DNA of 40,705 nt. It comes from a virus. Its lineage: Duplodnaviria; Caudoviricetes. The stretch spans positions 1 to 40,705 of IMG/VR virus record IMGVR_UViG_3300037419_001217, one strand, 5' to 3'. Below the pieces are notes generated by a model that saw nothing but the letters and a program-made list of their open reading frames with translations, ran no database searches and had not been told where the DNA came from. Below, piece after piece: positions 3,492 through 31,506 of this stretch (positions are counted from its first letter, which is position 1; every line of letters begins with the position of its first letter). Position numbers and translations under genes: made by a program.

Positions 3492-3685
3492 TGCCCGTCA
3501 GCTATGCCGACCGCGTTTGGCGGAAGCGTGACTTCGAGCAGGACAAGCGCAACGAAGAGCGCGCCGCTTCGTGGGCGGTGCGCTGTCGCGTCGTTCCGCA
3601 ATTCCAGCGGCCACTGCTCGCCCATCGTATTTGGTCGTGGGAAGGCCGCGTCGTCTCGAAGCCGCAGAAGCGAGGAAAGAAATGA
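3488..3685 (+). CDS. hypothetical protein
   Basis: SD AAGGAG, ATGA coupling to the next gene. Confidence 0.55.
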   Translation: MMPVSYADRVWRKRDFEQDKRNEERAASWAVRCRVVPQFQRPLLAHRIWSWEGRVVSKPQKRGKK

Positions 3686-4890
3686 CCGCCCATTCCAACA
3701 TCGGCGCGTCCAGCATGTACCGCTGGAGCGCGTGCCCCGGCAGCGTGCGTCTGTCGGCCGGCGTCGCGAAGAAGTCCAGCAAGTACGCCGACGAAGGCAG
3801 TGACGCGCACGAGCTCGCGGCCATGTGCCTGCGCGGCGGCTTCCGGGCCGAGGAGTTCGTGGATCGCCACATTATCCAGGGCGGCCGCGACTTCACGCCC
3901 GATGCCGCCATGACCGAGGCGGTGCAAGTCTACCTCGATGCGGTGACGGCGCGGACGTGCGTGGCCGAAGATTGCAGCCTTGATATCGAAACCAAGTTCG
4001 ACCTGTCCGACGTCCACCCGGGGTGCTTTGGCACAGCCGACGCAGTGATCTGGAATGCGACCACCCGCGTGCTCACCGTGATGGACTACAAGCACGGCGC
4101 CGGTGTCCCGGTCAAAGTCGTCGGCAACCCACAGCTTCAGTATTACGGGCTTGGGGCGCTGCGGGCTTCCGGCTACCCGGCCGAGAAGGTGCGGCTCGTG
4201 ATCGTGCAACCCCGCTGCGAAATCGAGGGCTCGGCGGTGCGCGAGTGGGAGATCGACACGATCGACCTCTTGGACTTCCAGGCCGACCTCAAAGCCTATG
4301 CCGCCGCCACGGAGGATCCGAATGCACCGCTCAACCCCGGCGACCACTGCCGGTTTTGCCCGGCTGCGGCTCTTTGTCCTGCGCTGGCGAACAAGGCTCA
4401 GGAGGTGGCACGCATGGAGTTTGCGCCGGCCCAGCCCTACGACGCCGCGCAACTTAAGCTTGCGCTGGACAGTCGAGAGGTCATCCGGGCGTGGCTGAAG
4501 GCGCTGGACGAGTTCGCCTATGCCGAGGCCGAAGCTGGCCGCACGCCCCCCGGCTACAAGCTGGTGGCCAAGCGCGCCATGCGCAAATGGCGTGCCGAGG
4601 GCGAGGTGGTGGAGGCGCTGCAGAGCGCCGGCATCAAGCCCGACGTGTTCTACGAGCGGTCGCTGCGCTCGCCCGCCCAGCTCGAAAAGCTGGTGGATAA
4701 GAAAGTGCTGGCACCGTTCATCGTCGCCGAGTCGTCCGGCCATGCGCTGGTGTCGGAGGCCGACAAGCGGCCGGCCATCCGCGTCGACGCCGCATCCGAG
4801 TTCTCACCCAAGGACCCCGATAAGGAATTGCTCGACATCCCCGGGTTCCTCACCAAGCCCAAGCCGAGCACCGCAACCATCTTCGACTGA
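3682..4890 (+). CDS. Cas4-like PD-(D/E)xK exonuclease (DUF2800 family)
   Basis: AHS.IGASS..RW.ACPGS, GTAD, VMDYKHGAG, NPQL..Y.LGA, HCRFCPA...CP. Confidence 0.9.
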   Translation: MTAHSNIGASSMYRWSACPGSVRLSAGVAKKSSKYADEGSDAHELAAMCLRGGFRAEEFVDRHIIQGGRDFTPDAAMTEAVQVYLDAVTARTCVAEDCSLDIETKFDLSDVHPGCFGTADAVIWNATTRVLTVMDYKHGAGVPVKVVGNPQLQYYGLGALRASGYPAEKVRLVIVQPRCEIEGSAVREWEIDTIDLLDFQADLKAYAAATEDPNAPLNPGDHCRFCPAAALCPALANKAQEVARMEFAPAQPYDAAQLKLALDSREVIRAWLKALDEFAYAEAEAGRTPPGYKLVAKRAMRKWRAEGEVVEALQSAGIKPDVFYERSLRSPAQLEKLVDKKVLAPFIVAESSGHALVSEADKRPAIRVDAASEFSPKDPDKELLDIPGFLTKPKPSTATIFD

Positions 4891-4904
4891 AAAGGAAATA
4901 CCGC

Positions 4905-5504
4905 ATGGCCGAGAAACTGATTACCCCGGAGTTCCGCGCGTCTTACGCCTGGATTTTTGAACCGCAGGTCAACAAGCGTGAAGACGGCACCATCGTCAAA
5001 GAATACTCGCTGGTCGGCATCTTCCCCAAGGGCACCGATCTCACCGAGCTCAAGAAGGCGGCCGAGGCGGCGCTGGTCAAGAAGTACGGAACCGACCAGA
5101 GCAAGTGGCCGACGATCACGCGCAATCCCTTCCGCAAGTGCCGCGAGAAGTGGAAGAACGAAGACGGCAAGCAGGTGATCCCCGCTGGCTACGAGGACCC
5201 CGACGCCATCTTCATCACGTTCAAGGCCACCGAGAAGTACAAGCCAGGTGTCGTCGACGCCAACGTGAAGGACATCATCGAGCCGCGCGAGTTCTATTCC
5301 GGGTGCTACGCCCGCGCGTCGGTGCGCGCGTATGTCTACGACAACAAGGGCAACCGCGGCGTCGGCTTCGGGCTTAACAACGTGCAGAAGCTGCGCGACG
5401 GCGAGCCCTTGGGTGGCAGCGGCGGCCCCGCCCGGCCCTCCGACGAGTTCCAGGCTGTGGCCGAGGTCGGCGGCAGCACCGGCGCCGCGTCGGTGTTCGA
5501 TTGA
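4905..5504 (+). CDS. ssb: single-stranded DNA-binding protein (DUF2815, gp2.5-like)
   Basis: FRASY..IFEP, FYSGCYARASV, GNRGVGFGLNNVQKLRDGEPLG. Confidence 0.9.
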   Translation: MAEKLITPEFRASYAWIFEPQVNKREDGTIVKEYSLVGIFPKGTDLTELKKAAEAALVKKYGTDQSKWPTITRNPFRKCREKWKNEDGKQVIPAGYEDPDAIFITFKATEKYKPGVVDANVKDIIEPREFYSGCYARASVRAYVYDNKGNRGVGFGLNNVQKLRDGEPLGGSGGPARPSDEFQAVAEVGGSTGAASVFD

Positions 5505-5510
5505 TCCGAG

Positions 5511-5529
5511 CGTTGTCTATTTGACAACA
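5511..5529. promoter_or_regulatory. operator copy 3
   Basis: CGTTGTCTATTTGACAACA directly after the ssb stop. Confidence 0.75.
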
Positions 5530-5530
5530 T

Positions 5531-5559
5531 GCGGGAGGGGCTGCGGCTCCTCCCGTTTT
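5531..5559 (+). terminator. Rho-independent terminator after ssb
   Basis: CGGGAGG-GGC-TGCG-GCT-CCTCCCG hairpin followed by TTTT. Confidence 0.65.
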
Positions 5560-5572
5560 CACCGGAGGACGC

Positions 5573-5759
5573 AATGCGGATCGCTTTGTCGGTCAAGTTT
5601 GATGTTGGTCGTTACTCACTTGAACTAGGGATTGTTCCGCTCCCCGTGTGGCTGCCGCCTTGGCACGCTCGGGTGTTCGGTGAAGGCCTGGATTTCAAGC
5701 GCGGCTTTAGCGCGGCGCTGGGTCCGTTCGCCATTCTTGTTAAATGGCCGGTCGTATGA
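5573..5759 (+). CDS. small hypothetical protein (start approximate)
   Basis: SD GGAGG before MRIALSVK..., stop overlaps the pol ATG. Confidence 0.5.
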
Positions 5760-7792
5760 ACGTCCTCCACATCGACTTCGAGACGCGCAGCACCGTCGAT
5801 CTGAAGGCGGCGGGCATCGACAACTACGCCAAGCATCCGACGACGGACGTGTGGTGCATGGCGTATGCGTTCGATGACGAACCTGTGGAGATCATCGCGG
5901 GTGACTTCTGCGTCCTTCAAAACGTACTTGAAGGCGGAGAGGCGCTCCAATTCGTGGCGGATGGCGGCACCGTCGCCGCCCACAAAGCCAGCTTCGAGCT
6001 CGCTATCTGGAACCACATCTGCGTGCCGCGCTACGGCTGGCCACCGCTGAAGCCGAAGCAATGCCGCGACACCATGGCGATGGTTTACGCCATGGCGCTG
6101 CCGGGCTCGCTCGATAAAGCCTCTGCGGCTGTTGGCATCGCCCAGCAGAAGGATGCGGCGGGCTACCGGCTGATGATGCAGATGTGCCGGCCGCGCGAAG
6201 TGAAGCCCGACGGCACTCTGGTTTGGTGGAGCGAGCCCGACAAGCTCCAGCGCCTCTACGAGTATTGCAAGCAGGACGTCCGGGTCGAACGCGAGCTGGA
6301 CAAACGCCTGATGCCCCTGTCGCAGAGCGAGCAGGCCCTGTGGGTGCTCGACCAGAAGATCAACAACCGCGGAATCACCATCGACCGGCAGGCCGTGACG
6401 AAGGCCATCGTCGTGGTCGAGTCGGAGCAGACGCGGCTCAACGAGGAGATGAAGCGTGTTACGGGAAATTTTGTGGGCTTTTGCACTGAGACGGCTCGCC
6501 TCACTAAATGGGTGCAAGATCAAGGCGTCATGGTGGGCGGCGTCGCTAAAGCTGACGTGCTCGACGCACTGGACGGACCATTGCCCGACGTTGTTCGAGA
6601 TGCACTGCTCCTGCGCCAAGAAGCAGGAAAGTCGTCGACCGCAAAGCTAAAAACCATGCTGACGGCGGCATCCTCGGATGACCGTCTGCGCGGGATGCTG
6701 CAGTTCCACGGCGCCGGCACCGGACGGTGGGCGGGGCGCAAGGTGCAGTTGCACAACATGCCGCGACCCGGCCTCCGCGACGGCGAGCGCGTGCTGAAGT
6801 TTCCGCAGAAAGAGATCGAGCGGGCGATCGAGGTCATCGTTACGCACGAGCCGAAGGAAGCTGCGCGCATCCTCGACATGCTGTTCGGCTCGCCGCTCGA
6901 GGTCGTGTCGTCGTGCCTGCGCGCTATGCTGCGGGCGGCACCCGGACACGATCTGCTGGCCGCCGACTTCGCCAATATCGAGGGGCGCGCGTTGGCGTGG
7001 CTCGCCGGCGAGGAATGGAAACTGCACGCGTTCCGCGAGTACGACGCCAAACGCGGTCCCGACATTTATAAGATTTCCGCCAACCGTATCTACGGAGTGG
7101 CGATCGAAGACGTGGTCGACGACCAGCGCCAGATCGGCAAGGTGGCGGAGCTCGCTTGCGGATACCAAGGCGGCGTCGGCGCGTTTCAGATGATGGCGAA
7201 AACCTATTTGGTGAAGGTGGCAGATGAACTCGCGGACTCGATCAAAACAAAATGGCGCCAGGCCCATAGTCGAATCACGGAGCTTTGGTACGCTTACGAG
7301 GACGCGGCGCTACGGGCTGTCCTCAGCCCCGGACTGGTTGTTTCTGCTGGACCGAGTGGACGAGCAATTAAGTTCAAGGTCAGCGGATCCTTCCTCTGGT
7401 GCCTCCTGCCCTCCGGCCGAGCCCTCTGTTACCCCTACCCCAAGGTAAAGCCGATCGAGACGCCGTGGGGCGAGACGAAGGACCAGGTCCACTACATGAC
7501 GGTGGACGGCACCACTAACAAATGGGTGGAGACGCACACCTACGGCGGCAAGATTGCGGAGAACGTAACGCAGGCGATCTGCCGCGACCTTCTCGCCCAC
7601 GCCATCGTCAACGCCGAGGCCGCCGGCTATCCGGTGGTGCTGCACGTCCACGACGAAGTGGTCTCTGAAATGCCGAAGGGCGCCGGCAGCCTCGAGGAGT
7701 TCGAGGCGATTTGCGCCCGCACACCGAAATGGGCGGATGGGCTGCCCGTCACTACCGCGGGATGGCGCGGAGAAAGGTATAGGAAGGGATGA
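5756..7792 (+). CDS. polA: family A DNA polymerase with 3'-5' exonuclease domain
   Basis: ExoI HIDFETRS, ExoIII YCKQDV, TGRWAG, motif A DFANIEGR, motif B RQIGKVAELACGY, motif C HVHDE. Confidence 0.95.
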   Translation: MNVLHIDFETRSTVDLKAAGIDNYAKHPTTDVWCMAYAFDDEPVEIIAGDFCVLQNVLEGGEALQFVADGGTVAAHKASFELAIWNHICVPRYGWPPLKPKQCRDTMAMVYAMALPGSLDKASAAVGIAQQKDAAGYRLMMQMCRPREVKPDGTLVWWSEPDKLQRLYEYCKQDVRVERELDKRLMPLSQSEQALWVLDQKINNRGITIDRQAVTKAIVVVESEQTRLNEEMKRVTGNFVGFCTETARLTKWVQDQGVMVGGVAKADVLDALDGPLPDVVRDALLLRQEAGKSSTAKLKTMLTAASSDDRLRGMLQFHGAGTGRWAGRKVQLHNMPRPGLRDGERVLKFPQKEIERAIEVIVTHEPKEAARILDMLFGSPLEVVSSCLRAMLRAAPGHDLLAADFANIEGRALAWLAGEEWKLHAFREYDAKRGPDIYKISANRIYGVAIEDVVDDQRQIGKVAELACGYQGGVGAFQMMAKTYLVKVADELADSIKTKWRQAHSRITELWYAYEDAALRAVLSPGLVVSAGPSGRAIKFKVSGSFLWCLLPSGRALCYPYPKVKPIETPWGETKDQVHYMTVDGTTNKWVETHTYGGKIAENVTQAICRDLLAHAIVNAEAAGYPVVLHVHDEVVSEMPKGAGSLEEFEAICARTPKWADGLPVTTAGWRGERYRKG

Positions 7793-7986
7793 TCAAGAAA
7801 CTTGGACGGGTGTTTGGAGGTACGCTGCTGGCCTGCGGTTTGATGGAGTATGGGATCGGCGCTTTCGCCGCATGGGACGCCAACCCCGGGCATTGGGAGG
7901 TCGTTAGCCGACTTCTGCTGGCCGTCGCGTGGCCAATGGCCAGCCTCATGGTAACAGCCTGCATCATGGAAGCCACCCATGCCTGA
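7789..7986 (+). CDS. small membrane protein
   Basis: Two hydrophobic segments, coupled to the pol stop. Confidence 0.5.
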   Translation: MIKKLGRVFGGTLLACGLMEYGIGAFAAWDANPGHWEVVSRLLLAVAWPMASLMVTACIMEATHA

Positions 7987-8188
7987 CATCATCGACGACG
8001 CGAACGCCACCGCCGATCTGTTCTTGGCTGCGGCGTTGTCTATTAGACAACAATCGGCTAAGGTGCCAACCCACGGCATCGGCATGTGCCTGAACTGCGG
8101 CGCCGACGTGGAGGGCGACCGGCGGTGGTGCGACGTGGACTGCCGAAACCAATGGGACCTCGACAACAAGCGCCGGGAGCGGACGTAG
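7979..8188 (+). CDS. TraR/DksA-like C4 zinc-finger protein
   Basis: N-terminal D3-x-x-D6-x-A8 (MPDIIDDA), CxxC...CxxxC. Confidence 0.75.
   Translation: MPDIIDDANATADLFLAAALSIRQQSAKVPTHGIGMCLNCGADVEGDRRWCDVDCRNQWDLDNKRRERT
8034..8064 (+). promoter_or_regulatory. operator copy 4 (8034-8052, intragenic) overlapping promoter TTGTCT-N17-TAAGGT
   Basis: CGTTGTCTATTAGACAACA; -35 at 8036-8041, -10 at 8059-8064. Confidence 0.7.
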
Positions 8189-8658
8189 TGCCTTCTAAAT
8201 CGGCCACTAAAAAAGCCGCACAGCAGAGAGCCTACTACGCTCGGCACAGGGACGAGCGCATCGCGTACTCCCGTAGGTATCGCCTCGCGCACGACACTCC
8301 TGAACGCCGGGCAGCCGCCGTAGCACGATCCAAGGCGTGGCGTCGCGCCAATTATCTGAAGGATCTGTTCCACCACGCGAGAGGCAGAGCGCTTCGCCGC
8401 GGCATCAAATTCGAGATCACCTTCGATGATCTGACGTGGCCCGAGTTCTGCCCGGTGCTCGGTGTTCGAATTGATTACTCGCCAGATGGCAAAGAAGGCG
8501 CACCGAGGGCGAACGGTCCGTCGTTGGATCGCTCCCACCCCAAGCGCGGGTATGTTAAAGGCAATGTCCGCGTCATCTCTTATCGCGCCAACCACATAAA
8601 AACCGACGCCACAGCCAAAGAACTGGCGTTGGTAGCGGCCTATGTCGCGGGGCTCTGA
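8188..8658 (+). CDS. HNH-like free-standing endonuclease
   Basis: CPVLG, PSLDR....GYVKGNVRVIS.RAN..K. Confidence 0.8.
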   Translation: MPSKSATKKAAQQRAYYARHRDERIAYSRRYRLAHDTPERRAAAVARSKAWRRANYLKDLFHHARGRALRRGIKFEITFDDLTWPEFCPVLGVRIDYSPDGKEGAPRANGPSLDRSHPKRGYVKGNVRVISYRANHIKTDATAKELALVAAYVAGL

Positions 8659-10832
8659 TGGCTAAACTCGATCACGCCCTCGCTCTTGCAGCCGAGGGCT
8701 TCTACGTATTCCCGGTCCAACAAGACAAGAAGATCCCCGTCACAGGTGTGCGGTTCAAACAAGCCGCAACGCGCGACGAGGCGACCATACGCGCATGGTG
8801 GACCGAGAGCGATCATAACATTGGCGTCTACACAGGCCGGTTCGGCGAGAACGAAGCACTTGTCGTCGTAGACGTGGATAACAAGCAAGGGAAGAACGGT
8901 GATGCTGAAATCCTTCGCCTCGAGCTGGAAGGCTTTGAACTGCCTGATACGCGAGCGACGAGTACGCCGACAGGTGGAAGGCATCTTGTGTTCCGCGTGG
9001 CGACTCCGCTTCGGCAAGGCGTCAACGTCCTTGGTCAAGGGGTGGACATCCGATCTCGCGGTGGATTTGTGTTGGGTCGCGGTTCAACCATCGGCGGCAA
9101 GAGCTACGCCGATCTGTCCGATCTACCTGTCGCACCCGCTCCTCGATGGCTTGTCGATCGGCTCGGCGCTGGCGTTCGTGAACCTGCTCAACCAGCGCTT
9201 CGAGAGGGAAATGGGACTGACCCGGCAGCCGCTGCGGCTCGCGCCGCACGGTATCTTGAGCGGGACGCGCCATTAGCCGTCGAAGGCGAAGGTGGCGACG
9301 AGACGACGTTCAAGGTCGCCTGCCGCATCAAGGACTTCGGCGTGGACTTCGACACCGCGCTGCATCTTATGCTCGAACTTTGGAACGAACGCTGCTCGCC
9401 GCCGTGGCCGGGCGACGTTCTCTTTGTGAAGATTCGCAACGCCTACGCCTACGGCATCGAGCCGCCGGGCGTGGCGGCGCCGGAGAACGACTTCAAGCCG
9501 GTGGAAACCGCTACGCCGGCCGCCGAGCTCTCACCCTACCAGAAGCTCAACCGTGACTACGCCTTCGTGCTCGCCGGCGGCGGCGCGCACATCCTGTGGG
9601 AGACGACCGACAAGGACGGCCGCTTCACCCTCGAGCACCTGACCCTGAGCGCGTTCCACCAGAAGCACGCGGCGGTCAAGGTCACGGTCGGCAAGAAATC
9701 GGTGCCGCTCACCGTCGACTGGATGGAGTGGCCGGAGCGGCGATCATTCGACGGCATCGTGTTCATGCCGGAGCAGCCGGCGCCGGCGCGCTTCTTCAAC
9801 CTCTGGCGCGGCTTCGCGGTCGAGCCATGGCGCGACAGCGACGGCGTGCCCGACAGCCGCGCCTCTGCCGCCGTCGCCGCCTTCCACGAGCACGCGCTGC
9901 GGAACATCTGCCGCGGCGACGAGACGCTGTACCGCTGGCTGATCGGCTACTTCGCGCACCTGGTCCAGCGGCCATGGGAAAAGCCGCTCGTGGCGCTGGT
10001 GTTCAAGGGCGGCAAGGGCGTCGGCAAGAACGCATTGATCGAGACGGTGGGCGCGCTGCTCGGCGGGCATTTCCTGCTGAGCTCCAACCGCCGCTACCTC
10101 ATCGGCAACTTCAACGGCCACTTGGAGAACTGCCTGCTGTTCGCTTTGGACGAGGCGGTGTGGGCTGGCGACAAGCAAACCGAAGGGACGCTTAAAGACC
10201 TCGTCACAGGCAAGCACCATGTCATCGAGCACAAGGGCAAAGAGCCCTACACCGTCGATAACCGAACGCGCGTTGCGATCATTGGCAACGAGGAGTGGCT
10301 TGTGCCTGCTTCCCACGACGAGCGACGTTTCGCTGTCTTTGACGTGGGAGACGGCCGGAAACAGGATCGCCGTTTCTTTCAGGAGATGCGCGAAGGGATG
10401 GAATGGGGCGGCTACCGCCTCCTGCTCCGACAGCTCCTCGACGCCGACATTACGCGGCTCGATATTAACGAAGCACCTGGAACCGAAGCCCTCCTCGAAC
10501 AGAAAACTTCGAGCCTCGATCCGTTCCCTCAGTGGTGGCTCGCCTGCCTCACCGAAGGGCGAATCGTCGCCAGCGACTTCGGTGCCGAGTGGCCGGACGA
10601 AGTCGAGTGCGAGCGATTCCGCGTCGCCTTCCGCCGCTGGGCCAAGGAGCACAACATCCGCGCCCGCATGCTCGACGAGCGCGGCATCGGCAAGCACCTG
10701 AAGCGGGTGTGCGCGGGCCATCACCACACCAAGGTGCGCGGCACGGGCTACGTCTACCGCTTCCCGGCGTTGGAGGCGTGCCGCGCGGCCTGGGGCGCCT
10801 TCATGGGCCACGAGATGGAGTGGCCGGAATAA
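8658..10832 (+). CDS. bifunctional primase-polymerase fused to SF3-type (DUF5906-like) helicase
   Basis: Prim-pol motifs VFPV, NIGV, VVDVD, TPTGGRH, GVDIR; Walker A GGKGVGKN, Walker B FALDEA. Confidence 0.92.
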   Translation: MAKLDHALALAAEGFYVFPVQQDKKIPVTGVRFKQAATRDEATIRAWWTESDHNIGVYTGRFGENEALVVVDVDNKQGKNGDAEILRLELEGFELPDTRATSTPTGGRHLVFRVATPLRQGVNVLGQGVDIRSRGGFVLGRGSTIGGKSYADLSDLPVAPAPRWLVDRLGAGVREPAQPALREGNGTDPAAAAARAARYLERDAPLAVEGEGGDETTFKVACRIKDFGVDFDTALHLMLELWNERCSPPWPGDVLFVKIRNAYAYGIEPPGVAAPENDFKPVETATPAAELSPYQKLNRDYAFVLAGGGAHILWETTDKDGRFTLEHLTLSAFHQKHAAVKVTVGKKSVPLTVDWMEWPERRSFDGIVFMPEQPAPARFFNLWRGFAVEPWRDSDGVPDSRASAAVAAFHEHALRNICRGDETLYRWLIGYFAHLVQRPWEKPLVALVFKGGKGVGKNALIETVGALLGGHFLLSSNRRYLIGNFNGHLENCLLFALDEAVWAGDKQTEGTLKDLVTGKHHVIEHKGKEPYTVDNRTRVAIIGNEEWLVPASHDERRFAVFDVGDGRKQDRRFFQEMREGMEWGGYRLLLRQLLDADITRLDINEAPGTEALLEQKTSSLDPFPQWWLACLTEGRIVASDFGAEWPDEVECERFRVAFRRWAKEHNIRARMLDERGIGKHLKRVCAGHHHTKVRGTGYVYRFPALEACRAAWGAFMGHEMEWPE

Positions 10833-10834
10833 CC

Positions 10835-11698
10835 ATGGCCGCCTACTACAACGAGTGGGATCCATACGCCGCTCAGTGGCTGCGCAACCTGATTACCGCC
10901 GGCTACTTGCCGGACGGTGACGTCGATACCAGGAGCATTGTTGATGTCCACCCCGTCGATCTCATCGGCTACGAGCAAGTCCACTTTTTCGCCGGAATTG
11001 GCGGCTGGGCTTATGCGGCTCGGCTTGCTGGATGGCCCGATGATCGAGAGCTCTGGACCGGCTCCTGTCCCTGCCAACCGTTCAGTGCCGCCGGCAAGCG
11101 CAAGGGCGAAGCCGACGAGCGCCATCTGTGGCCTGAGTTTCGACGCCTCATCTCCGTCTGCCGTCCTTCAGTCGTCTTTGGAGAGCAGGTTGCGAGCGCG
11201 CCTGGGCGCCGCTGGCTCGCCGGAGTACGAGCTGACCTGGAAGCAATGGCCTATGGAGTCGGGGCCGCCGATCTGTGCGCTGCGAGCGTCGGCGCGCCGC
11301 ACATCCGGCAACGACTGTGGTGGGTGGCCGACTCCGAATGCAGGGCCGCAGAACGACACGGACACTCGCTGGCAGGAACGCCGGGCGGAGTGCAAGACGA
11401 TGGCTGGCTGGGCGACGCCAGCGTCGCGGGATTATCGCAGCGAGAGCGCGACGGACGCTTTCAACGAGAAACGTTGGTCGCATCCGCGGGGCAAGCCGCT
11501 ATCGGCAGAGGCAACGCTGGCTTCTGGTCCGACGCCGACTGGCTCCCCTGCACCGACGGAAAGGCGCGGCGCATTGAACCCGGCACATTCCCGCTGGCTC
11601 ATGGGATACCCGGCCGCGTGGGACGACTGCGCGCCTACGGCAACGCGATCATCCCGCAAGTCGCGGCGGAGTTCATAAGGGCGACCTTGACACCGTGA
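10835..11698 (+). CDS. C5-cytosine DNA methyltransferase, alpha subunit
   Basis: FFAGIGG (motif I), GSCPCQPFS (IV), GEQV (VI), HIRQRLW (VIII), YGNAI (X); motif IX missing in this frame. Confidence 0.9.
10944..11678 (+). CDS. nested +1-frame methyltransferase beta subunit (motif IX carrier)
   Basis: SD AGGAG 8 nt before ATG 10944; WPTP/WATP and [14 protein letters not shown], as in M.EcoHK31I-type split enzymes. Confidence 0.75.
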
Positions 11699-13510: not shown

Positions 13511-14014
13511 CTACCGCGATAGCAACTTGATCGTCTCGTCCTTGCTGGCCGAGCCGCGCGAGGAGCCGAAGTAGTAGGCGACGACCTGATCGGCCTTGGC
13601 TGAGACATATCCGATCAGCGTGCCGATCAGCGCCGCCGTGTTGGGGTCCTTGAGCCCCATCACCTCACCCGTCAGCACCGCGCCGACGGCGGCGAGAAAG
13701 CCGACGATGATCACCGTGCCGAGCACGGCGTTGGAGTGGTCTTTGGTTTGGATCTCGCGGTTGCGGGCGCTGTCGCGGTCCTGTACGCCGAGTTCCTCCA
13801 TCTTCGCCGCGAAGTCCTGATCGGCCTTCTTGAGGGCGAGGAGCTGGTCGGGGCTGGCGCCGCTCACCGCCTGGGCGAGCTGCTCCGGGGTCGAGTTGCC
13901 GAGCCCGAACACGCCCTCGATCGCCTTCACCGCGACGCCGGCGAGCGGGCCGCCAAGCGCCGTCGCCAGGCGCGGTGCCACCGCCGCAAGGGTGTCTTTC
14001 CAGTCGATTGCCAT
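13511..14014 (-). CDS. holin-like membrane protein (3TM type)
   Basis: AP.LATALGGPLAG, DRDSAR.RE, TM helices, YYFGSSRGS; directly after the endolysin. Confidence 0.75.
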   Translation of the reverse strand: MAIDWKDTLAAVAPRLATALGGPLAGVAVKAIEGVFGLGNSTPEQLAQAVSGASPDQLLALKKADQDFAAKMEELGVQDRDSARNREIQTKDHSNAVLGTVIIVGFLAAVGAVLTGEVMGLKDPNTAALIGTLIGYVSAKADQVVAYYFGSSRGSASKDETIKLLSR

Positions 14015-14016
14015 GG

Positions 14017-14436
14017 CTACACCTCGGGGTTCTGGAAGTGGGGCATCTCGCGGAAGGGCGCGTCGGGGTCGCCGTACCACTTGAGGCCGACGGCCTTGCC
14101 GTGGCCGCCGATGATTTCCCACAGGGTCGGGTCGTCCCATTCGCACTTGCCATGGACCAGCGGCACGACGTCGAACGCCTCCGCCGCCGGCTGGCCCTTG
14201 GCGTTGACGGCGTTGTGCTTTGACTTGCCGCCCTTGGCGTTGGTGACGATGCGCCCCGGCAGCGTGCGCCCCTGGGCGTAAAGCTTGTCCTGTTCCTCGC
14301 TCGAGCGGTAGGTGCAGGTCAAGAGAACGGACACGCCCTCCTTGAGCAGCGTGAGATCGCGCCGGCAGCGGTCGTTGAACTTGTTGTAGAGCACCTGCAT
14401 GGCAGGCGAGAGGTCGGCGATGTTACGCGAAGCCAT
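14017..14436 (-). CDS. endolysin, M15 (L-Ala-D-Glu type) peptidase
   Basis: TYRS.EEQ..LYAQGRT.PG.IVTNA..G.S.HN, AFD, E.PHFQ. Confidence 0.9.
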   Translation of the reverse strand: MASRNIADLSPAMQVLYNKFNDRCRRDLTLLKEGVSVLLTCTYRSSEEQDKLYAQGRTLPGRIVTNAKGGKSKHNAVNAKGQPAAEAFDVVPLVHGKCEWDDPTLWEIIGGHGKAVGLKWYGDPDAPFREMPHFQNPEV

Positions 14437-14441
14437 GGCGA

Positions 14442-14669
14442 TCAAACTCCCATCTGATGCTGGCGCCGCAGCATCTCGAAATACTCGTCGCGCGGAAGGA
14501 TGGCGCAGCCTTCCTGGCACATCTCGCTCACGGCCTTGTCCTGCTCCGGCGTCAGTTGCCGCGTCTCAGACGGGGCCGAGGCCGCACAGCCCGCCAGCGC
14601 GAACAGGGCGCAGGCGCCGATCGTGCCGAGCACCACGTAGCGAAAAAATCGGATCAGCCGTTTCAGCAT
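14442..14669 (-). CDS. lipoprotein (possible spanin or lysis accessory)
   Basis: Lipobox LAG-C, SD AGGAGG, next to the endolysin. Confidence 0.65.
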   Translation of the reverse strand: MLKRLIRFFRYVVLGTIGACALFALAGCAASAPSETRQLTPEQDKAVSEMCQEGCAILPRDEYFEMLRRQHQMGV

Positions 14670-14678
14670 CGGTTCCTC

Positions 14679-15035
14679 CTATGCGGCTTTCTTGCGACGC
14701 CGGCCCTTGTGGGCCATGTCCGCCATGTTTTCGGCGTGGGTGCCGGGGACGAGATGCGTCGGGTTGACGCACTTCGGGTTGTCGCAGGTGTGCATGAGAA
14801 GCTGCGCGGGGCACACGCCCCACGTCATGGCGTAGGCGGCACGATGAGCAAGTGCCCGGCGGTGCGATCGACTCGTCCGGCCGCGCATCTCGACACAGCC
14901 ATAGCCGCCAATGCGTTGGCCGCCGTCGAATTCCATGCAGCCGGTAACGCGCAGCTTCACCTTCGACCAGAACTCGGCGACCCGGTACGGGCTGAAATCG
15001 TCTGCCGTGATGACTTTCATCCGGGCTTGGCTCAT
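14679..15035 (-). CDS. HNH homing endonuclease
   Basis: FWSKV, GYG, AHRAAY, HTCDNPKCVNPTHL..GT..EN..D. Confidence 0.9.
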   Translation of the reverse strand: MSQARMKVITADDFSPYRVAEFWSKVKLRVTGCMEFDGGQRIGGYGCVEMRGRTSRSHRRALAHRAAYAMTWGVCPAQLLMHTCDNPKCVNPTHLVPGTHAENMADMAHKGRRRKKAA

Positions 15036-16246
15036 GCCGCCACGCTGACCCATGCCGTCTTGGTCGCCTTGAAGCCACGGTCGACGTAGATCGGACAGCG
15101 ATAGGTGATCCCGTACTTGGGATGGGTGAGCCACAGCGCCTGTTGCGGCTTCTCGTAGGGGAAGTTGTTGGAATAGGCGTATTCGTCCATGCCCTTGAGC
15201 GACCCGTTCACGATCAACCGCGTAAGGTGCATGTACTGATGGAAATGCCCGAGCAGGAGCGTGTCGTACTCCATGTCGATCTGCGCGTTGCGCGAGCGCT
15301 TCTTGTGGTCGCCGCGAATGATCGGACCGAGTGCGCCGATGAGGCCGTCGCCGCCGCGGAACTGATCGCCATGGGTCAGCAGGTAGCGATGACTGCACAC
15401 CTTGAAGTAGGCGTCGGGGCCGTCGGGGATCAGGAAGGTGACGCGGCGATCGTCCTCGAAGCGCTTGGCCAGGAAGCAGTAGAGCAGCCAATCGAACGAC
15501 GTCTTGTGCCGGTCCTTGCCCCAAATCTTCACGGTGTCGCGGCCGTGGTTGCCGGTGACGCATGGCACGAACACCTTGCCGAACCGCGTGGCCAGCATGG
15601 CGATGAGCTTGGTGAGCTCGGCGAACAGGTCGAGCACCGCTTCCATGGAGTTGAGCTCGTTGGTGGCGGTGAGCTCGTCGTGGATGTTGCCGGAGATCAT
15701 GTCGCCGCCCAGCACCAGGACGATGCCGGGGAATTCCATCTTCGGGCTGATGATGGACAGGAGCCGCACGGCGCGCTCGCCCAGCGCCTCCATGCGCCGA
15801 TGCGCGATCTCGACGTTGTACTTGTTGACGCCGTTGATCTGGCTCGGATGCACCACCTCGCCCCAATGGAGATCGGACAGGAACAAGGTCGGCACGCCCG
15901 GGGCCGAGTCGGCCGCCTGCGGCTTCGTCACCCACGGAGGCGTCGGCGTCTCGGCAGCGTTGCGCGCAAGGCCGACGATGTGCCGCTTGATGGTGTCCTC
16001 GGTGAGCGCCTTGGCCTCGAGCGCCGCCAATTCTTTTTCCAGCCGTTTGACGGTGGCTTTGAGCGCCGCCGGGTCGTCGTGCGCGACAACGGCGGGCCTG
16101 AAGCCAAGGCGATCAGCCATGGCGAGTTGCGACACCACGGTGGCTCGCGGCTTGTTGAGCGTGCGCGCGGCCTCGGCGATGTTGCCGGTCTTGGCCAGCG
16201 CATCCACAGCAGCCTGCACGGCGACGCGGTCGATCGGCACGCTCAT
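15032..16246 (-). CDS. calcineurin-like metallophosphoesterase with N-terminal HTH and coiled coil
   Basis: SDLHWG, GGDMISG, GNHGR, THGD, GHFH; N-terminal GNIAEAARTLNKPRATV. Confidence 0.85.
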   Translation of the reverse strand: MSVPIDRVAVQAAVDALAKTGNIAEAARTLNKPRATVVSQLAMADRLGFRPAVVAHDDPAALKATVKRLEKELAALEAKALTEDTIKRHIVGLARNAAETPTPPWVTKPQAADSAPGVPTLFLSDLHWGEVVHPSQINGVNKYNVEIAHRRMEALGERAVRLLSIISPKMEFPGIVLVLGGDMISGNIHDELTATNELNSMEAVLDLFAELTKLIAMLATRFGKVFVPCVTGNHGRDTVKIWGKDRHKTSFDWLLYCFLAKRFEDDRRVTFLIPDGPDAYFKVCSHRYLLTHGDQFRGGDGLIGALGPIIRGDHKKRSRNAQIDMEYDTLLLGHFHQYMHLTRLIVNGSLKGMDEYAYSNNFPYEKPQQALWLTHPKYGITYRCPIYVDRGFKATKTAWVSVAA

Positions 16247-16605
16247 CGGTAGAACTCCTTCCAGTCCCAGCCGTGCAGGCGACACACCTGCCGGGCCAGT
16301 CGGTTGAACTCCGCGTTGTGCTCGGTGTTGGCCGTCTCGGTCTTGGCCACGGCCTGGTGGAGATGGATCATCTCGTGGGCCATGACGTGGAAGACGGTGT
16401 TGGTGTGGCCGACGCGCTTGGCCGAGAGGGAGATGTGATGAAGGCCGGTGGCGATCTCGCGGCAGTAGTAGCCCATCCATTTCGAGCCGCAGACGTGGAA
16501 CACCACGTCGTCGCCAGGGGGCAACCGCCAGCCCTTGAACGGCGGCGTCACCCGCAGGAACTCGTAGGCGGCCTCGATGATGTCGGGCGTCAGCGGCAGG
16601 GTCAT
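16243..16605 (-). CDS. SprT-like zinc metallopeptidase
   Basis: MAHEMIH followed by downstream H..EF. Confidence 0.75.
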   Translation of the reverse strand: MTLPLTPDIIEAAYEFLRVTPPFKGWRLPPGDDVVFHVCGSKWMGYYCREIATGLHHISLSAKRVGHTNTVFHVMAHEMIHLHQAVAKTETANTEHNAEFNRLARQVCRLHGWDWKEFYR

Positions 16606-16841: not shown

Positions 16842-16937
16842 ATGGTGGATTTCATTCGGTTTCTGGCCGCTCGCCGGAAGTGGTGGGTGCTCGCCGCCTT
16901 TCTTCCGCTAGGGTTTGTAGTGGCGATGCACCCATAG
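16842..16937 (+). CDS. 31-aa antisense-oriented membrane peptide
   Basis: Strong SD GAGGAGG, extended -10 TGcTAAGGT at 16805-16813. Confidence 0.45.
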   Translation: MVDFIRFLAARRKWWVLAAFLPLGFVVAMHP

Positions 16938-17600
16938 TCCGTCGCTGGCGATGTAGAGCTTCACCGTCTCCAGCTTGGAGGTCAGGGTGAACGAAGCGTT
17001 CGTCACGCCGTTGAGCGCGTCCCCGGCGTAAGGGAAGATCGTCACGGTGTAGGGGGCGTCGTCGACCTTCTGCACCTCGATCACGTTCGACATATAGCCG
17101 CCGTGCGTGAACTGGCTGACGGGATTGAAGTAGAGCCCGACGCTGCCGCCGCAAACGGCCGTGTTGCAGCGCAGGATTTCCCGCACGTCTTTCGGGAGCA
17201 CGTTGTAGCTCGGGGTGATGATCGTCCGCTGCGACTGCGGCTGGTCGCGGTGGAATGTCTTGCCCATAAGGTGAAAGCGACTGACGCCGTCGCACACCAA
17301 TTCGGCGGCCTGCTGCGTCAGATTGAGATAGGGGCCGTAGGGGGCGTTCGTGTCCCAAAACCAGTTCAGTTTGTCACCCGCCTGGGTCGGCCTGAACTGG
17401 ACCGTATTGGACGTGTTGTCGATTTTCATGACCGTTGGCACATGCCAGCCCGCGGGCAGGCTGGCGGCCGCGGGCAGCGCGAATACGAGATCGCCGAGGC
17501 TCGCATCAACGGCGAGAAACTTCTCGTCGTGCGCGGCGGACAGATTGAACACGCCCGATGGCGCATCGGCGTTGGTCACGGAAACAATCTGAATCGTCAT
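16908..17600 (-). CDS. tail-fibre-associated protein with two tandem beta-rich repeats
   Basis: Repeated KID...NTV...GD.LN and KVD...TVTI...GDALNG units; SD AAGGA. Confidence 0.7.
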   Translation of the reverse strand: MTIQIVSVTNADAPSGVFNLSAAHDEKFLAVDASLGDLVFALPAAASLPAGWHVPTVMKIDNTSNTVQFRPTQAGDKLNWFWDTNAPYGPYLNLTQQAAELVCDGVSRFHLMGKTFHRDQPQSQRTIITPSYNVLPKDVREILRCNTAVCGGSVGLYFNPVSQFTHGGYMSNVIEVQKVDDAPYTVTIFPYAGDALNGVTNASFTLTSKLETVKLYIASDGLWVHRHYKP

Positions 17601-17614
17601 TATCTTTTCCTTTA

Positions 17615-17788
17615 TTAAAGGGCCGGCTCCGGCGTGTTGCCTGCGGCAAGCCACACCTGGTACGCCTGCCAGTCGGCATTGGCCGAGTCGGCGGGGATGC
17701 TGGTGAATACGTCGGGCTTGACGTCGTCGATCTTCGTGACGCCGGTTTCGCGGCCGTCGAATTGCTCGATGCGGTAGGAGATCGTCAT
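17615..17788 (-). CDS. small tail fibre assembly/chaperone-like protein (not in the ORF track)
   Basis: SIPADSANADWQAYQVWLAAGNTPEPA motif directly after the fibre gene. Confidence 0.65.
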   Translation of the reverse strand: MTISYRIEQFDGRETGVTKIDDVKPDVFTSIPADSANADWQAYQVWLAAGNTPEPAL

Positions 17789-19455
17789 AGGTAAGCCTGC
17801 GCTTCGATGTAGCAGGCGTTTCCGTCGGAACCGACATCGCCGGGCTTGCCGGCCGTTGCTCCCGTCACAGCAAATTGGTAGGCCACCACGTCCGCGCTCG
17901 ACATGTTCGTTCCGGCGGAGCAGGTGAACGAACCCGCGCCGTCGTTGAAGGCGATGTGCGAGAAGCCGACGGTCGGCGTTGCGCGCATCGGCGTATCAAG
18001 AGGGATCGCCAGCTTCACCGCCGTCGTGGTACGCGCAAATCCGACGGTGATCGGCCACGGCGAGTTGGCCGACTGATTCCAGCGCCGGTAGTAGCGGCGG
18101 CAAAACGAAAACTCGGTCTGATACGGCCGGCGCTCGAACGCAGTCGGGATCGTCCCGGCCTCAAGCTGGTTGAAGTCGAAATCGAGGGTGAAGTTCTGCG
18201 CCGCGGTCCCCTCGGTCCACACCATGCCGATCAGATTATTGAAGGACGAGCCGAGGGCGCCGGAGATGGCCGCCAGCGACGTCCAAGTATTCGCCGCCGG
18301 GGTCGCGCTGCCGATCGCCAGCACCGACACATTCGACGCCAGGAAGAAATTGCCGGCGGTGTAGGTCGCGCTCGTCCAGTCGTTGACCACATCGGAGGTG
18401 ACGGAATCCTCTGTACCGGTCCAGCCGAGGATCGCGTAGCGAATGGCCTGCGATGCCGACGCTCGGATGCGCGGCACGAACACGCCGCTCTTGCCGCGGA
18501 GGTCTTTGCAGTTCTTACCCTCAACGATCTGCGCATAGCCGAACCGCTGCGCCGATGCCTGGGACTGCGTGAGCCGAATGCCCTTCGGGTAGCCGTCCTC
18601 GGGATCGGTCAGCACGGACGGCGTGACGCTGCCCGTCTGCGATAAGACGTACCAATCGTCTGCGAAATAGGTGTCGTCGGCAGTAGCGGCGACGTCGGAC
18701 TGGTAGATGCTGCCAGCCGGATTGATGAGCCGATTGCGGCCCACGAGGTAGTCGTAGCTCGACCACGCCGAGCCGCTCGACATTGGCACGCGGCCCGCGC
18801 TGTGAGCGAGCGCGGCAATGGCATCGAGATCGGCGTCGTGCGCCTGAACATCCGTGCCAACGACAAGGCCGAGCGTCGCTCGCGCCGTCGCCGCATCGGG
18901 GTCATCCACCACCGTCGCCATGAAGGTTGAGATCGGAGTTGCGTCGGCCGACCCATCGGCAGCAAGGGGGTCGCCGCTGGCGTCGAACGCGAGATACTTG
19001 GACGCGCGCTTCACCTTGGCCGGCAGAACGCCGATATCTGTGGTGTCGCCATCCGGTTGCCGCAACCCACGCGTCACCATTTCGCGGGTGCGCTGCTCCA
19101 CCGCGGTCAGTTTGTCGAGCGGATTGTCGATCGACGCGGCGGGAACGGGGTCGTTGTCGACGTGCTCGACCGTCTGCGTCAGCGCCGGGTCACGGTAGAT
19201 CGTCCACGTCACCGTGTTTGCCGGCGCCGTCACCGCGTTGACCGTGCCGCCGCTCTGATAGACGCCGGACGAATCCGCAGTGCCTGAGATCGTGTAGTCG
19301 GTGGTCAGCGCCTTGGTCGTCTGCACGCCGGTGGCGATCACCGTTTCGATGACGACGAGATCGGCCTGGGCGAAAAACTTGTACGGAAACGAGAATGCCG
19401 TGGTGACGCCGTTGCCGGTGTAACTGACCCGGTTGGTGGTGGACGAGATGGTCAT
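17785..19455 (-). CDS. tail fibre protein (T7 gp17-like N-terminal anchor)
   Basis: MTISST..RVSYTGNGVTT.FSFPY, LD.LT...Q, C-terminal QLEAG..PT.FERRP...E...CRRYY. Confidence 0.9.
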   Translation of the reverse strand: MTISSTTNRVSYTGNGVTTAFSFPYKFFAQADLVVIETVIATGVQTTKALTTDYTISGTADSSGVYQSGGTVNAVTAPANTVTWTIYRDPALTQTVEHVDNDPVPAASIDNPLDKLTAVEQRTREMVTRGLRQPDGDTTDIGVLPAKVKRASKYLAFDASGDPLAADGSADATPISTFMATVVDDPDAATARATLGLVVGTDVQAHDADLDAIAALAHSAGRVPMSSGSAWSSYDYLVGRNRLINPAGSIYQSDVAATADDTYFADDWYVLSQTGSVTPSVLTDPEDGYPKGIRLTQSQASAQRFGYAQIVEGKNCKDLRGKSGVFVPRIRASASQAIRYAILGWTGTEDSVTSDVVNDWTSATYTAGNFFLASNVSVLAIGSATPAANTWTSLAAISGALGSSFNNLIGMVWTEGTAAQNFTLDFDFNQLEAGTIPTAFERRPYQTEFSFCRRYYRRWNQSANSPWPITVGFARTTTAVKLAIPLDTPMRATPTVGFSHIAFNDGAGSFTCSAGTNMSSADVVAYQFAVTGATAGKPGDVGSDGNACYIEAQAYL

Positions 19456-25126: not shown

Positions 25127-25554
25127 GGCGTCACCCGCGCATAAAGAAAGTGATCGCGGCCGTCCGGCGTATAGGCTTCGCGGATGCCCTCGACCTTGAA
25201 GCCGAGCAGCGACGCCAGCCGGCAGCCGTTGCCGAATCCGTCGGCCACGTCCGCCTCGATGCGGCGGATACCGGCGTCGGCGAGCACCGTTTTCATCTTG
25301 CGGACGATGGCGGGCCACTGACGCGTCGCGCCGACGCCCAACAGCGCCCACGCCTTGGCGTAATTCTCCCACTGCAAGGCCAGCCCGGCGCAGCCCACCA
25401 CGGCGCCATCGACGATGCCGGTCCACGCGCGCCCGGGCGCCACCAGGGACTCGGCGAAGCCGGGCTTCAGCACCAACTCGCGCCAACGGTGCTGCTCGGG
25501 CGGCAGCCGAACCGCGGCGAAGTGATGGGGCTCGTAGGGAACGAACGCGATCAT
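25123..25554 (-). CDS. GNAT-fold protein (gp13-like position)
   Basis: VGCAG....W....AWALL, RRIEADV, LGFKVEG. Confidence 0.75.
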   Translation of the reverse strand: MIAFVPYEPHHFAAVRLPPEQHRWRELVLKPGFAESLVAPGRAWTGIVDGAVVGCAGLALQWENYAKAWALLGVGATRQWPAIVRKMKTVLADAGIRRIEADVADGFGNGCRLASLLGFKVEGIREAYTPDGRDHFLYARVTP

Positions 25555-27590: not shown

Positions 27591-28186
27591 CAGGACGGCC
27601 GCCCATTGTTCCAGCCGTTGCCGGCGAGCCGCGCGGCCACCCACGAATCCTCGGGCGGCGTATCGGACAGCTTCTCGAAAGCGTTGGACTTCTTCGCGTC
27701 GGCGATGGCGAACTTGTATTCGCTCGCCACGTCCGCCTTTTTCTGGTTGGACTGCGTGATCTCCTCGCACATGTGCCATGCCATCTTGCAGGCCAGCGCC
27801 TCGACGAAGCACGGGTCGTACACCGTCGGGTCCTCGATGCGCGCCGTGTAGACGAGGTTGAGCGTGTCGCCGGCGTTGGTCAGGATCTTGTTGCTCTCGA
27901 ACTTCCAGTCGAGCGCGTAGGTGTTGGGCGGCAGGATGCGCAGGCAGTCCTGCGGGATGGAAAAGGCGTAGTCGAAGTCAAAGGCGGGCGCGGTGGCGTC
28001 GGGCGCCAGCACGATGCGCTTGGTGGCGAAGGTCCACGGGTGCGCGCGCAGCTCCTTGTCGCGTTCCAGCGTGTAGCAGGCGTTGCACGAGCGCGCGTTG
28101 CGGCTGTCGTCCGTCAGCGCGGTGATGCGCGCGGCCCCGAGCTTCTGAAGCGCCAGATTGCAGATGGAAACGTCGCTGGTCGCCAT
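27590..28186 (-). CDS. tail tubular protein A / adaptor
   Basis: ICNLAL..LG...I, HPWTFA, P.DCLR. Confidence 0.9.
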   Translation of the reverse strand: MATSDVSICNLALQKLGAARITALTDDSRNARSCNACYTLERDKELRAHPWTFATKRIVLAPDATAPAFDFDYAFSIPQDCLRILPPNTYALDWKFESNKILTNAGDTLNLVYTARIEDPTVYDPCFVEALACKMAWHMCEEITQSNQKKADVASEYKFAIADAKKSNAFEKLSDTPPEDSWVAARLAGNGWNNGRPS

Positions 28187-30597: not shown

Positions 30598-31506
30598 TCA
30601 CGACGGGCTGGCGATGCGGTGGAGATCGGCGAACTCCTTGCGCGCCTTGACGTCGCCGTTCAGGTAGCGCTGGCCCCACTCCTTGTCGGCCTTGAGCTCG
30701 ACGATCTTGGCGCGCGCCTGGTCCGGCGTCATGCCCTGGAAGCCGTTGGTGCTGTCGGGCGTGACGAAGTTGCCCTCGGTGCCGAGCCGCGAGCCGAGGT
30801 TGTGGAGGAACTTCATCGCCTCGCCCGGCCCCATCGCCATCTTCAGCGCGTCGAGCTTAGCGGCGTCGATGCCGAAGGTGACGGCGGCGCGATCGACCAG
30901 CGCGGCGTGGGCGTCGAAGTTGGCGCCCCACTCGTTCTTGAGCGCCGCAATCTGCGCGGTGTGCGCGGCCTTGGTCGCCTCGGTCTGCTGCGTGGTCACG
31001 CCGGCGACGTGCTCGTTCCACTTGGCGACCAGCGCGGTCGCCTGCTTCGGATTCAGCCCTGCCTCGTGGAACCAGGTCGACGCGGTTTCGGCGAACTTGG
31101 TGTCCTGGCCCTGCGGCACCAGTTTGACGAGATCGTAGCCCTTGGCGTCCTTCGGCCGACCGAGCTTGTCGTAGACCGAACCCCACGCCGCGGCGTCGCT
31201 GTCGTCCTTCGGCAACTGCACCAGCCGCTCGGGCGCACCGTGCAGCTTCTCGAGGTTGGTGTAGGACGTCAGCAGATCGGCCGGGTTCTTCCAGCCCTTG
31301 TTCTGGACGTAACCCACCATAGTGTCGTCGCTGACACCGGCGGACTTCCAATCGAAGGCGGCGGGCGCAGCACCAGCGCCAGCAGCTCCCGCCCCGGCTG
31401 CCCCAGCACCGGCACCGGCACCGGCACCGGCACCAGCAGCGCCGGCTCCCGCGCCACCGTCATCGGGCGCGCGGCAGATGCGGTCGAGGATCGACTTGAT
31501 AGCCAT
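30598..31506 (-). CDS. capsid scaffolding protein
   Basis: SY.NLEK..G, YDKLGRP....GY, L..EWG..FD; Gly/Ala N-terminal tract; between portal and capsid genes. Confidence 0.85.
   Translation of the reverse strand: MAIKSILDRICRAPDDGGAGAGAAGAGAGAGAGAGAAGAGAAGAGAAPAAFDWKSAGVSDDTMVGYVQNKGWKNPADLLTSYTNLEKLHGAPERLVQLPKDDSDAAAWGSVYDKLGRPKDAKGYDLVKLVPQGQDTKFAETASTWFHEAGLNPKQATALVAKWNEHVAGVTTQQTEATKAAHTAQIAALKNEWGANFDAHAALVDRAAVTFGIDAAKLDALKMAMGPGEAMKFLHNLGSRLGTEGNFVTPDSTNGFQGMTPDQARAKIVELKADKEWGQRYLNGDVKARKEFADLHRIASPS

Follow-up and report, generated by a model that had tools for sequence, protein, structure and literature searches.

The window analysed here, by which we mean the whole 40,705-nucleotide stretch of IMG/VR record IMGVR_UViG_3300037419_001217, comes from a temperate podophage and consists of one 40.7-kb contig. 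Its plus strand carries an exonuclease (DUF2800), a single-stranded DNA-binding protein, a family A polymerase, an HNH nuclease, a Prim-Pol/DUF5906 primase-helicase, a C5 methyltransferase and an integrase, while the virion genes lie on the minus strand. Seven short open reading frames (ORFs) are nested in the +1 frame of the exonuclease, polymerase and primase genes. One of them, the frame ending at position 9276 within the primase gene (ORF A), is according to our analysis very probably a real nested gene that is shared across the primase family, judged from comparison of its sequence with that of relatives.

The host genes are the DUF2800/Cas4-like exonuclease gene (cas4; 3682-4890, plus strand; Pfam PF10926 at E 2e-87, phrog_69), the family A DNA polymerase gene (pol; 5756-7792, plus strand; PF00476, phrog_17; an ATG at 5744 is an alternative upstream start) and the Prim-Pol/DUF5906 primase-helicase gene (8658-10832, plus strand; PF09250, PF19263, phrog_1156). 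The nested ORFs, all on the plus strand, are located at 4322-4498 in cas4 (58 amino acids, aa; a start at 4298 or 4322 is possible), at 5865-6050 (61 aa), 6456-6650 (ORF C, 64 aa) and 7224-7448 (74 aa) in pol, and at 8686-8871 (61 aa), 8899-9276 (ORF A, 124-125 aa, from GTG 8899 or ATG 8902) and 10219-10701 (ORF B, 160 aa, in the helicase part) in the primase gene. Each is in the +1 frame of its host, as the first-pass annotation had reported, and together they form the complete set of nested +1 ORFs of at least 55 codons in these genes. Their number is at chance level, with 7 against 6.5 expected (1, 3 and 3 against 1.0, 2.4 and 3.1 in cas4, pol and primase), because the +1 frame of the host genes contains few stops, and the single-genome probability of being open, P(open), ranges from 0.06 to 0.77 per ORF.

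The nested ORFs differ from the rest of their host genes in codon usage. The G+C content at third codon positions (GC3) is 0.72, 0.74, 0.55 and 0.65 inside the ORFs at 4322, 5865, 6456 and 7224, and 0.69, 0.51 and 0.76 inside those at 8686, 8899 and 10219, against 0.87, 0.85 and 0.89 in the remainder of cas4, pol and primase. Patches rich in CTT, GGA, CGA and TTT had been noted by eye and were borne out by the counts, with 51 such codons among 603 inside the ORFs and 21 among 1201 outside (summed by hand). Compared with synonymous shuffles, the patchiness of GC3 exceeded the null in pol and primase (0/500), but not in cas4 (p 0.16). The alignment of ORFs and patches likewise went beyond chance: the ORFs held 79.6 excess A/T-ending codons against 34.7±14.4 in shuffles that held the A/T-versus-G/C track of third positions fixed (0/2000), and circular shifts in the three host genes gave p 0.02, 0.003 and 0.03. 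No such coincidence was found in 14 other genes of the window (28.6 against 22.1±8.9) or in the remaining four frames. The longest ORFs (15032-16480, 16908-17837 and 25551-27812) were trimmed before use as controls, and their 5' patches were dismissed as over-extended starts overlapping real upstream genes.

Further patches and unusual +1 frames were observed elsewhere in the window and in relatives. The scaffold/protease gene has, at 31269-31463 (minus strand), a strong A/T-ending patch with an open 64-codon +1 frame on an Ala-Gly repeat, and this patch is probably repeat-driven. A repressor-like gene (38705-39358, minus strand) has a single +1 stop where 5.1 would be expected (p 0.01, in a test of 23 genes). 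Patch-associated +1 ORFs absent from the window occur in cas4 of relative L150 (window codons 304-381), in the primase genes of L115 (365-493) and of L007 and L098 (454-512), and in a polymerase insertion of L126; two of these have a Shine-Dalgarno (SD) energy of -9.8 kcal/mol, the unit used for all SD values below.

Homologues were collected by scanning viral, metagenome and genome collections, together with five annotated records. Once near-duplicate and short sequences had been dropped, the set comprised 86 of 106 primase genes, 121 of 171 polymerase genes, 91 of 119 cas4 genes and 16 of 19 methyltransferase genes, the window included, and tests were run on subsets clustered at 75% identity, whose members still share descent. 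A single-sequence query with the primase returned no viral locus, but an alignment query did recover loci, and a scan of GTDB gave one distant locus. The closest full-length primases are at most 63% identical to that of the window (one fragment reaches 64%) and the closest polymerases 61-71%, while the closest cultured relatives, Ralstonia phages C22, RpY1 and DU_RP_II, have primases that are ~51% identical. Contigs from other soil and rhizosphere studies are identical to the window over 5851-7216, 8874-9646 and 8763-9716, so the nested frames are no assembly artefact. Among the sequencing runs listed as containing the region none was of RNA, and the matching DNA contigs were either nearly identical or short cross-matches, which left too few variants to test for polymorphism. 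The polymerase genes of L048, L126, L120, L100 and L023 have 919-973 codons against ~680 and so contain large in-frame insertions, perhaps inteins.

Among homologues with GC3 of at least 0.65, the coincidence statistic reached z 3.8 in 32 cas4, 3.2 in 37 pol and 6.2 in 33 primase genes. Initiation signals followed the patches as well. When all nested +1 ORFs of at least 40 codons were compared, with the best SD picked per ORF in both groups, those on an A/T patch had SD energies of -6.7 (n=11) against -3.2 off-patch (n=123) in the polymerase family and of -6.6 (n=29) against -3.0 (n=94) in the primase family, where most of the 29 on-patch ORFs are ORF A at its own position (slot A); in cas4 the split was 1 against 56 ORFs. 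On-patch ORFs were also richer in stops made from rare codons than off-patch ones.

Of the SD-like sites that the first-pass annotation had ascribed to several ORFs of the window, those at 4322 (-9.5), 6456 (-8.9) and 7224 (-6.7) proved strong, ranking within the top 3% of 122 +1 ATG/GTG codons in 17 genes, and that at 8899/8902 is moderate (-5.3), but none was present at 5865, 8686 or 10219. The description of the products as basic and rich in Arg and Trp turned out not to be diagnostic, given that Arg and Trp already make up 18% and 3.8% of the +1 shadow beyond the ORFs. Their richness in Leu is diagnostic, at 12-15% in the products of 4322, 6456 and 8902 against 2.3% in the shadow. The products do not form a single family of alike amphipathic peptides. 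A Pfam search of all seven products gave no match, nor did PADLOC with five window products and four products of relatives, or NCBIfam with five window products.

ORF A is located wholly inside the primase gene and is preceded by the SD-like sequence AAGGGAAG (8886-8894, plus strand), which is encoded by the primase motif K-Q-G-K and at whose position relatives carry AAGGAGG or GGGGAGGG. Across 41 primases with GC3 of at least 0.6, codons 81-180 contain 25 +1 stops, whereas a null preserving third-base composition locally predicts 81, and the other four frames show no depletion (within |z| 2.3); antisense or +2 genes were rejected on this ground. A low-GC3 set of 24 primases gave no overall signal. 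On a tree of the helicase part, one clade has frame A open in 36 of its 53 genes, compared with 1 of 21 genes outside it (hand count). In 20 of the 21 outgroup primases the frame contains 3-12 stops, the primase host frame being older and more widespread than the frame nested in it. Two low-GC3 members of the clade (L102 and L112) have the frame open together with an ATG and an SD, at P(open) of 0.01 and 0.04, and in clade members with GC3 of at least 0.87 the complete frame is gone, in most cases along with the patch.

The ends of the frame are marked as well. An ATG or GTG is present at slot A (codons 79-83) in 28 of 31 open genes against 14 of 30 closed ones (p 3e-4), the median SD there being -7.3 and -3.5, respectively, which points to a putative conserved initiation signal of its own. 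Of 26 ORF A stops, 16 derive from a rare NTA codon, compared with 78 of 414 other +1 stops (p 5e-6). Over 26 genomes the excess of A/T-ending codons rises at the start (p 2e-5) and falls past each genome's own stop (p 0.001), and neither GC1 nor GC2 is lowered over the ORF. Shortened versions of frame A on A/T patches persist in some lineages where the full ORF is lost (window codons 123-166 in L127 and L140; 80-129 in L003, L128 and L164). A programmed frameshift into ORF A was considered and rejected: three database proteins fuse the primase N-terminus to frame A, at three different points, and we read them as indel artefacts. The nested ORF is absent from the annotation of all three records MN996301, MF150911 and OR538033 (L033, L034 and L036), in which the primase-helicase itself is called 'integrase' in two and 'hypothetical' in one.

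A profile search for ORF A recovered 45 gene-caller products, 24 of them at E 1e-10 or better and about 15 forming a subfamily with the window's protein; these come mostly from short contigs, at least two of the weakest look spurious, and being calls on the same frame they are not independent evidence. In PHROG and Pfam no family was matched by the window's ORF A, and a 30-member alignment gave only single-member matches at E 0.002-0.09. A word-index search returned nothing with the broad alignment and 7 proteins with the window's subfamily. The AlphaFold model built on a 17-sequence alignment (predicted local distance difference test score, pLDDT, 84.4; predicted template modelling score 0.72) has three helices (residues 3-37, 43-61 and 86-104) and two short strands (72-75 and 111-114). 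Its best matches were weak in Foldseek (E 2.3 in the PDB, 0.72 in the viral set) and in VIA (Z 6.8, over generic helices); the PDB sequence search for ORF A gave a best E of 0.79, and the ESM Atlas a best value of 0.82 for the window's ORF A and no usable match for the L119 version. Failure to match a known structure is no proof that the fold is new. Among 86 relatives, 17 have an ORF A C-terminus, located in the primase linker, that includes a 19-residue window of mean hydropathy of at least 2.0, and the excess underlying this hydrophobic segment is confined to third-position T (T3 z 15.8; A3 z 0.4); the best 19-residue mean in the window's ORF A is 1.2, which is not of this type. The slot A product is predicted to be soluble in the window's lineage, with three helices and two strands, and in another lineage to be a hydrophobic-tailed, probably two-pass membrane protein.

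ORF C, in the polymerase gene, combines a strong GAGGAG SD with a TAA made from a rare CTA, and is probably a real gene. Its start, SD, stop and patch recur in the same positions in L002 and L096, which differ from one another over ORF C by 9 synonymous changes against 24.7 expected. The window's product is only 25% identical to theirs and may thus reflect a separate birth in the same slot. The frame is closed in L038, L039 and L101. L038 and L039 are sister genes that have neither patch nor frame, yet are 73-78% identical in the polymerase frame there (the best host-frame match, L038, is 78% identical with GC3 0.90), so the patch arose by synonymous rewriting rather than import. A patch with an open frame was also seen in this slot (pol codons 230-299) in L133, L049, L055, L138 and L098, at scattered tips of the polymerase tree. 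The pattern at the slot points to repeated gain or loss at one site.

For ORF B the comparison covered 58 primases, in which the frame was open over the next 80 codons in 8 of 9 genes with an ATG at the start codon and in 4 of 49 without. Seven of the eight open genes belong to one subclade, and six of the eight have an SD of -7.4 to -10.8, against -2.5 in the window. The frame is closed in L101, L096, L100 and L104. The last 60 codons of the window's ORF B extend beyond the patch into a Ser-rich tail, and its AlphaFold model is poor (pLDDT 46.9). A real gene in the subclade seems rather more probable than chance openness there, but expression in the window is doubtful, and the window's ORF is likely a decaying copy. 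Closure of the +1 frames in close homologues, which the first-pass annotation had named as evidence against overprinting, was thus found in part: frame A is open family-wide, ORFs C and B are open in some lineages and closed in the nearest relatives, and the remaining four are closed in most relatives.

Two of these four are candidate young genes. The ORF at 4322 has the strongest SD of the 122 +1 starts, a patch at p 0.01 and 12% Leu; its stretch is stop-free in 4 of 23 genes (the window being left out owing to its end stop), and the observed/expected ratio (O/E) of synonymous change over it is 1.0. The ORF at 7224 has a patch at p 2e-4 and a TAA from a rare GTA; L002 has an ATG and open frame here, and 1 of 39 genes is stop-free across the scanned stretch. 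In relatives both stretches mostly contain stops and show no synonymous constraint; one study describes young overprinted genes as lacking a signature of purifying selection (PMC3494269). We place the 7224 ORF just short of an even chance of being a gene and the 4322 ORF slightly lower.

The ORFs at 5865 and 8686 are each improbable as genes. Their P(open) by chance is 0.37-0.77 (0.71-0.77 for 5865), their composition is shadow-like, and they have neither an initiation signal of their own nor a frame kept open in homologues. The ORF at 5865, with an SD of -2.8, ends at a common Leu-Lys TGA, is closed in the two nearest relatives and probably reflects chance. The ORF at 8686 starts at a TTG with an SD of +0.6, shows no stop depletion in homologues (45 against 46) and has a patch extending on both sides of it; its sole favourable point is a TAG from a rare GTA, and it is probably a 5' codon ramp or chance. 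The gene just upstream encodes an HNH-type endonuclease (8188-8658, plus strand; phrog_3322), whose TGA overlaps the primase ATG and whose frame is the primase +1 frame. At 8656-8871 this frame stays open for 70 codons past the HNH stop, possibly by readthrough or as a remnant of a formerly longer HNH gene.

The methyltransferase genes serve as an internal positive control, as the first-pass annotation had suggested. Within the C5 DNA methyltransferase alpha gene (10835-11698, plus strand; phrog_363, PF00145) lies a nested +1 beta frame (10917-11678, plus strand; phrog_1008 at E 1e-30; ATG 10944 has a better SD, -6.6) that matches methyltransferase PHROGs, has a GC3 of 0.69 and is stop-free in 12 of 16 homologues. 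The pair shows the same codon signature as the ORF patches. In M.EcoHK31I both chains are needed for activity, beta carries motif IX, and beta lies wholly in another frame of alpha, as in the window (PMC2836561). The nested product described there is a subunit of the host enzyme (PMC2836561), whereas ORFs A-C are not known to have such a link.

Taking these observations together, the reading we consider probable, on comparative sequence grounds, is that the 124-codon frame at 8902-9276 very likely has a ribosome-binding site of its own from which a small accessory protein is made, and that up to four of the other +1 frames are likely younger or decaying genes. Overall, we count one frame as a strong gene and one as a likely gene, while three are uncertain and two reflect chance; the hidden +1 layer proposed in the first-pass annotation is statistically supported in the window and its relatives, but not for every ORF. 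We posit that nested products would be made by internal initiation on the replication mRNA. The SDs would be spelled by chance by conserved host motifs, namely K-x-G-K-[DN]-G in the primase, E-E-M in the polymerase and T-G-R-E-H-V in the helicase domain, and one or two synonymous changes could then create a +1 ATG or GTG. Because each host wobble base occupies the middle position of a +1 codon, selection favouring Leu, Ile, Val, Glu or Lys in the nested product would turn wobble bases to T or A, and the codon island would be the outcome of this selection, ending at the new stop. Slots would be old, while their products may turn over between lineages.

Several observations weigh against this reading. 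The homologue counts are phylogenetically non-independent. A milder +1 stop depletion is present at primase codons 401-500 (81 against 113), so that codon-pair bias may explain part of the stop signal, and the +2 frame of pol homologues also reaches z 3.0 in the coincidence test, which tempers the result for that gene. L101, the nearest relative, and L096 have frame A open without an ATG or GTG at the slot. ORF A shows weak synonymous constraint (O/E 0.88 and 0.85 against 1.14; 19 pairs, with recombination as a confounder), and across lineages its +1 residues are conserved no further than the primase frame dictates: at codons 83-160 the mean z is 0.04 and 0.52 against 0.2-1.1 in control regions, residue conservation reaching z 2.5 only for the window and L101. 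The Ala-Gly repeat of the scaffold gene, where the first +1 ATG lacks an SD, produces a patch and an open +1 frame for which no gene need be invoked.

The main rival accepts the internal starts and regards the products as incidental: translation in +1 would tune primase or polymerase output by ribosome diversion, mRNA protection or coupling to an in-frame start. We consider it unlikely, even though conservation extends to the start, the SD and the open frame but not to the sequence of the product, and although in the Ralstonia-phage clade an in-frame primase ATG overlaps the stop of ORF A (TGATG; 4 of 48 genes listed), much as T7 4.1 ends at 11757 and 4B starts at 11754 (V01146). The A/T patch runs along the ORF as far as the stop of each genome, a pattern indicating that residues are under selection, and regulation would need neither T-specific hydrophobic tails nor a confident fold. 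Within -6 to +7 codons of the ORF A stop the window has no in-frame start, and with the stop-start overlap confined to that one clade, coupling of the T7 4.1/4B type was rejected as a general explanation.

A somewhat less probable rival is that the patches are non-coding or compositional (low-GC import, a 5' codon ramp, a DNA or RNA signal, or a low-complexity linker), the open frames being a by-product because T-ending codons remove TGA stops. The chance-level ORF count and the single-genome P(open) values fit this view, as do a 5' ramp at primase codons 1-20 in all homologues and the Ala-Gly repeat of the scaffold gene as an example. Against it, stop depletion and coincidence persist when the null fixes third-base composition locally or the A/T track, ORF A shows no drop in GC1 or GC2, SD strength tracks the patch though located outside it, and there is neither an excess of promoters or terminators nor unusual structure at the starts. 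The mosaic origin from low-GC relatives that the first-pass annotation had raised is rejected, since the best host-frame match of every patch is a high-GC gene. A compositional cause is the best reading for 5865 and 8686, and on the sequence evidence is already contradicted for ORF A. That all seven ORFs are genes, the systematic overprinting first proposed, is very improbable. GC3 is below the flanks in each, the coincidence is significant when pooled, stops made from rare NTA codons close four of the seven against 1 of 25 other +1 stops (p 0.004), and with nearest relatives only 61-71% identical, young genes would be unshared; yet seven is the chance expectation, three of the ORFs (5865, 8686 and 10219) lack an SD, and the shadow-like 5865 and 8686 have no support from homologues.

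Nested genes in tailed phages are known from few cases, namely T7 4.1/4.2, Rz/Rz1 and the split methyltransferases. Spanins are located in the lysis cassette, and the nested spanin is a lipoprotein. The host genes in our case are those of an exonuclease, a polymerase and a primase, and no spanin profile was matched. A lysis cassette is suggested at 13511-14520 (minus strand), distant from the nested ORFs, where by eye an endolysin-like ORF (14017-14520) and the end of a holin-like hydrophobic ORF within 13511-14146 were seen. Rz/Rz1 and T7 18.5/18.7 share with the present ORFs a fully nested +1 gene in a tailed phage (PMC4283147). The closest parallel in position is T7, whose genes 4.1 and 4.2 are two out-of-frame ORFs within the primase-helicase gene; their coordinates (offsets 70 and 1423; V01146) place both in the +1 frame, and they lie like ORFs A and B in the N-terminal primase part and in the helicase part. 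The T7 primase is of a family unrelated to the window's Prim-Pol/DUF5906 enzyme, ORF A is three times longer than 4.1 and in the window not coupled to an internal start, and 4.2 runs past the host stop whereas ORF B does not. No PHROG or Pfam family links ORF A to 4.1 or 4.2; the T7 proteins were not compared directly.

In phiX174, gene E in D is described as a case where third-position T of the host is the second position of the nested codon and yields a Leu-rich transmembrane sequence (PMC8227390), as in the hydrophobic ORF A versions; the wobble rewriting proposed above follows the same logic. PhiX174 differs in being a single-stranded DNA phage with a T-rich host gene and a lysis function, and the window's ORF A is not strongly hydrophobic. 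Pseudomonas phage Fc02 has small overlapping genes with superinfection-exclusion activity, located in the lysis-lysogeny region (PMC9936078), which provide a functional precedent for the membrane-tailed versions; they are likened to ORF A by function, with no homology known. A literature search, from which subscription papers were out of reach, turned up no description of a gene nested within a primase of this family. Already on record are the +1 genes inside the T7 primase-helicase and the split methyltransferase layout.

As to function, we tentatively suggest, by analogy, that the likeliest role would be that of a non-essential, host-directed accessory protein made together with the replication proteins, for example in exclusion or counter-defence. 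More speculatively, the replication operon of this temperate podophage family may be a nursery in which fixed slots, set by primase and polymerase motifs that spell ribosome-binding sites, are repeatedly filled by unrelated de novo proteins (soluble and seemingly of a new fold in one lineage, two-pass membrane proteins in another), with at least five active genes here forming a fast-turnover arsenal against host defences or competing phages. The combination of A/T patch, SD and rare-codon stop offers a simple detector of genes missed by annotation in GC-rich phages. An unannotated gene of 100-130 codons appears to be common to most of the primase clade, three cultured phages included, and a conserved slot with a protein that turns over, in sister lineages with and without the ORF, would represent a natural series for the birth, folding and loss of de novo proteins.

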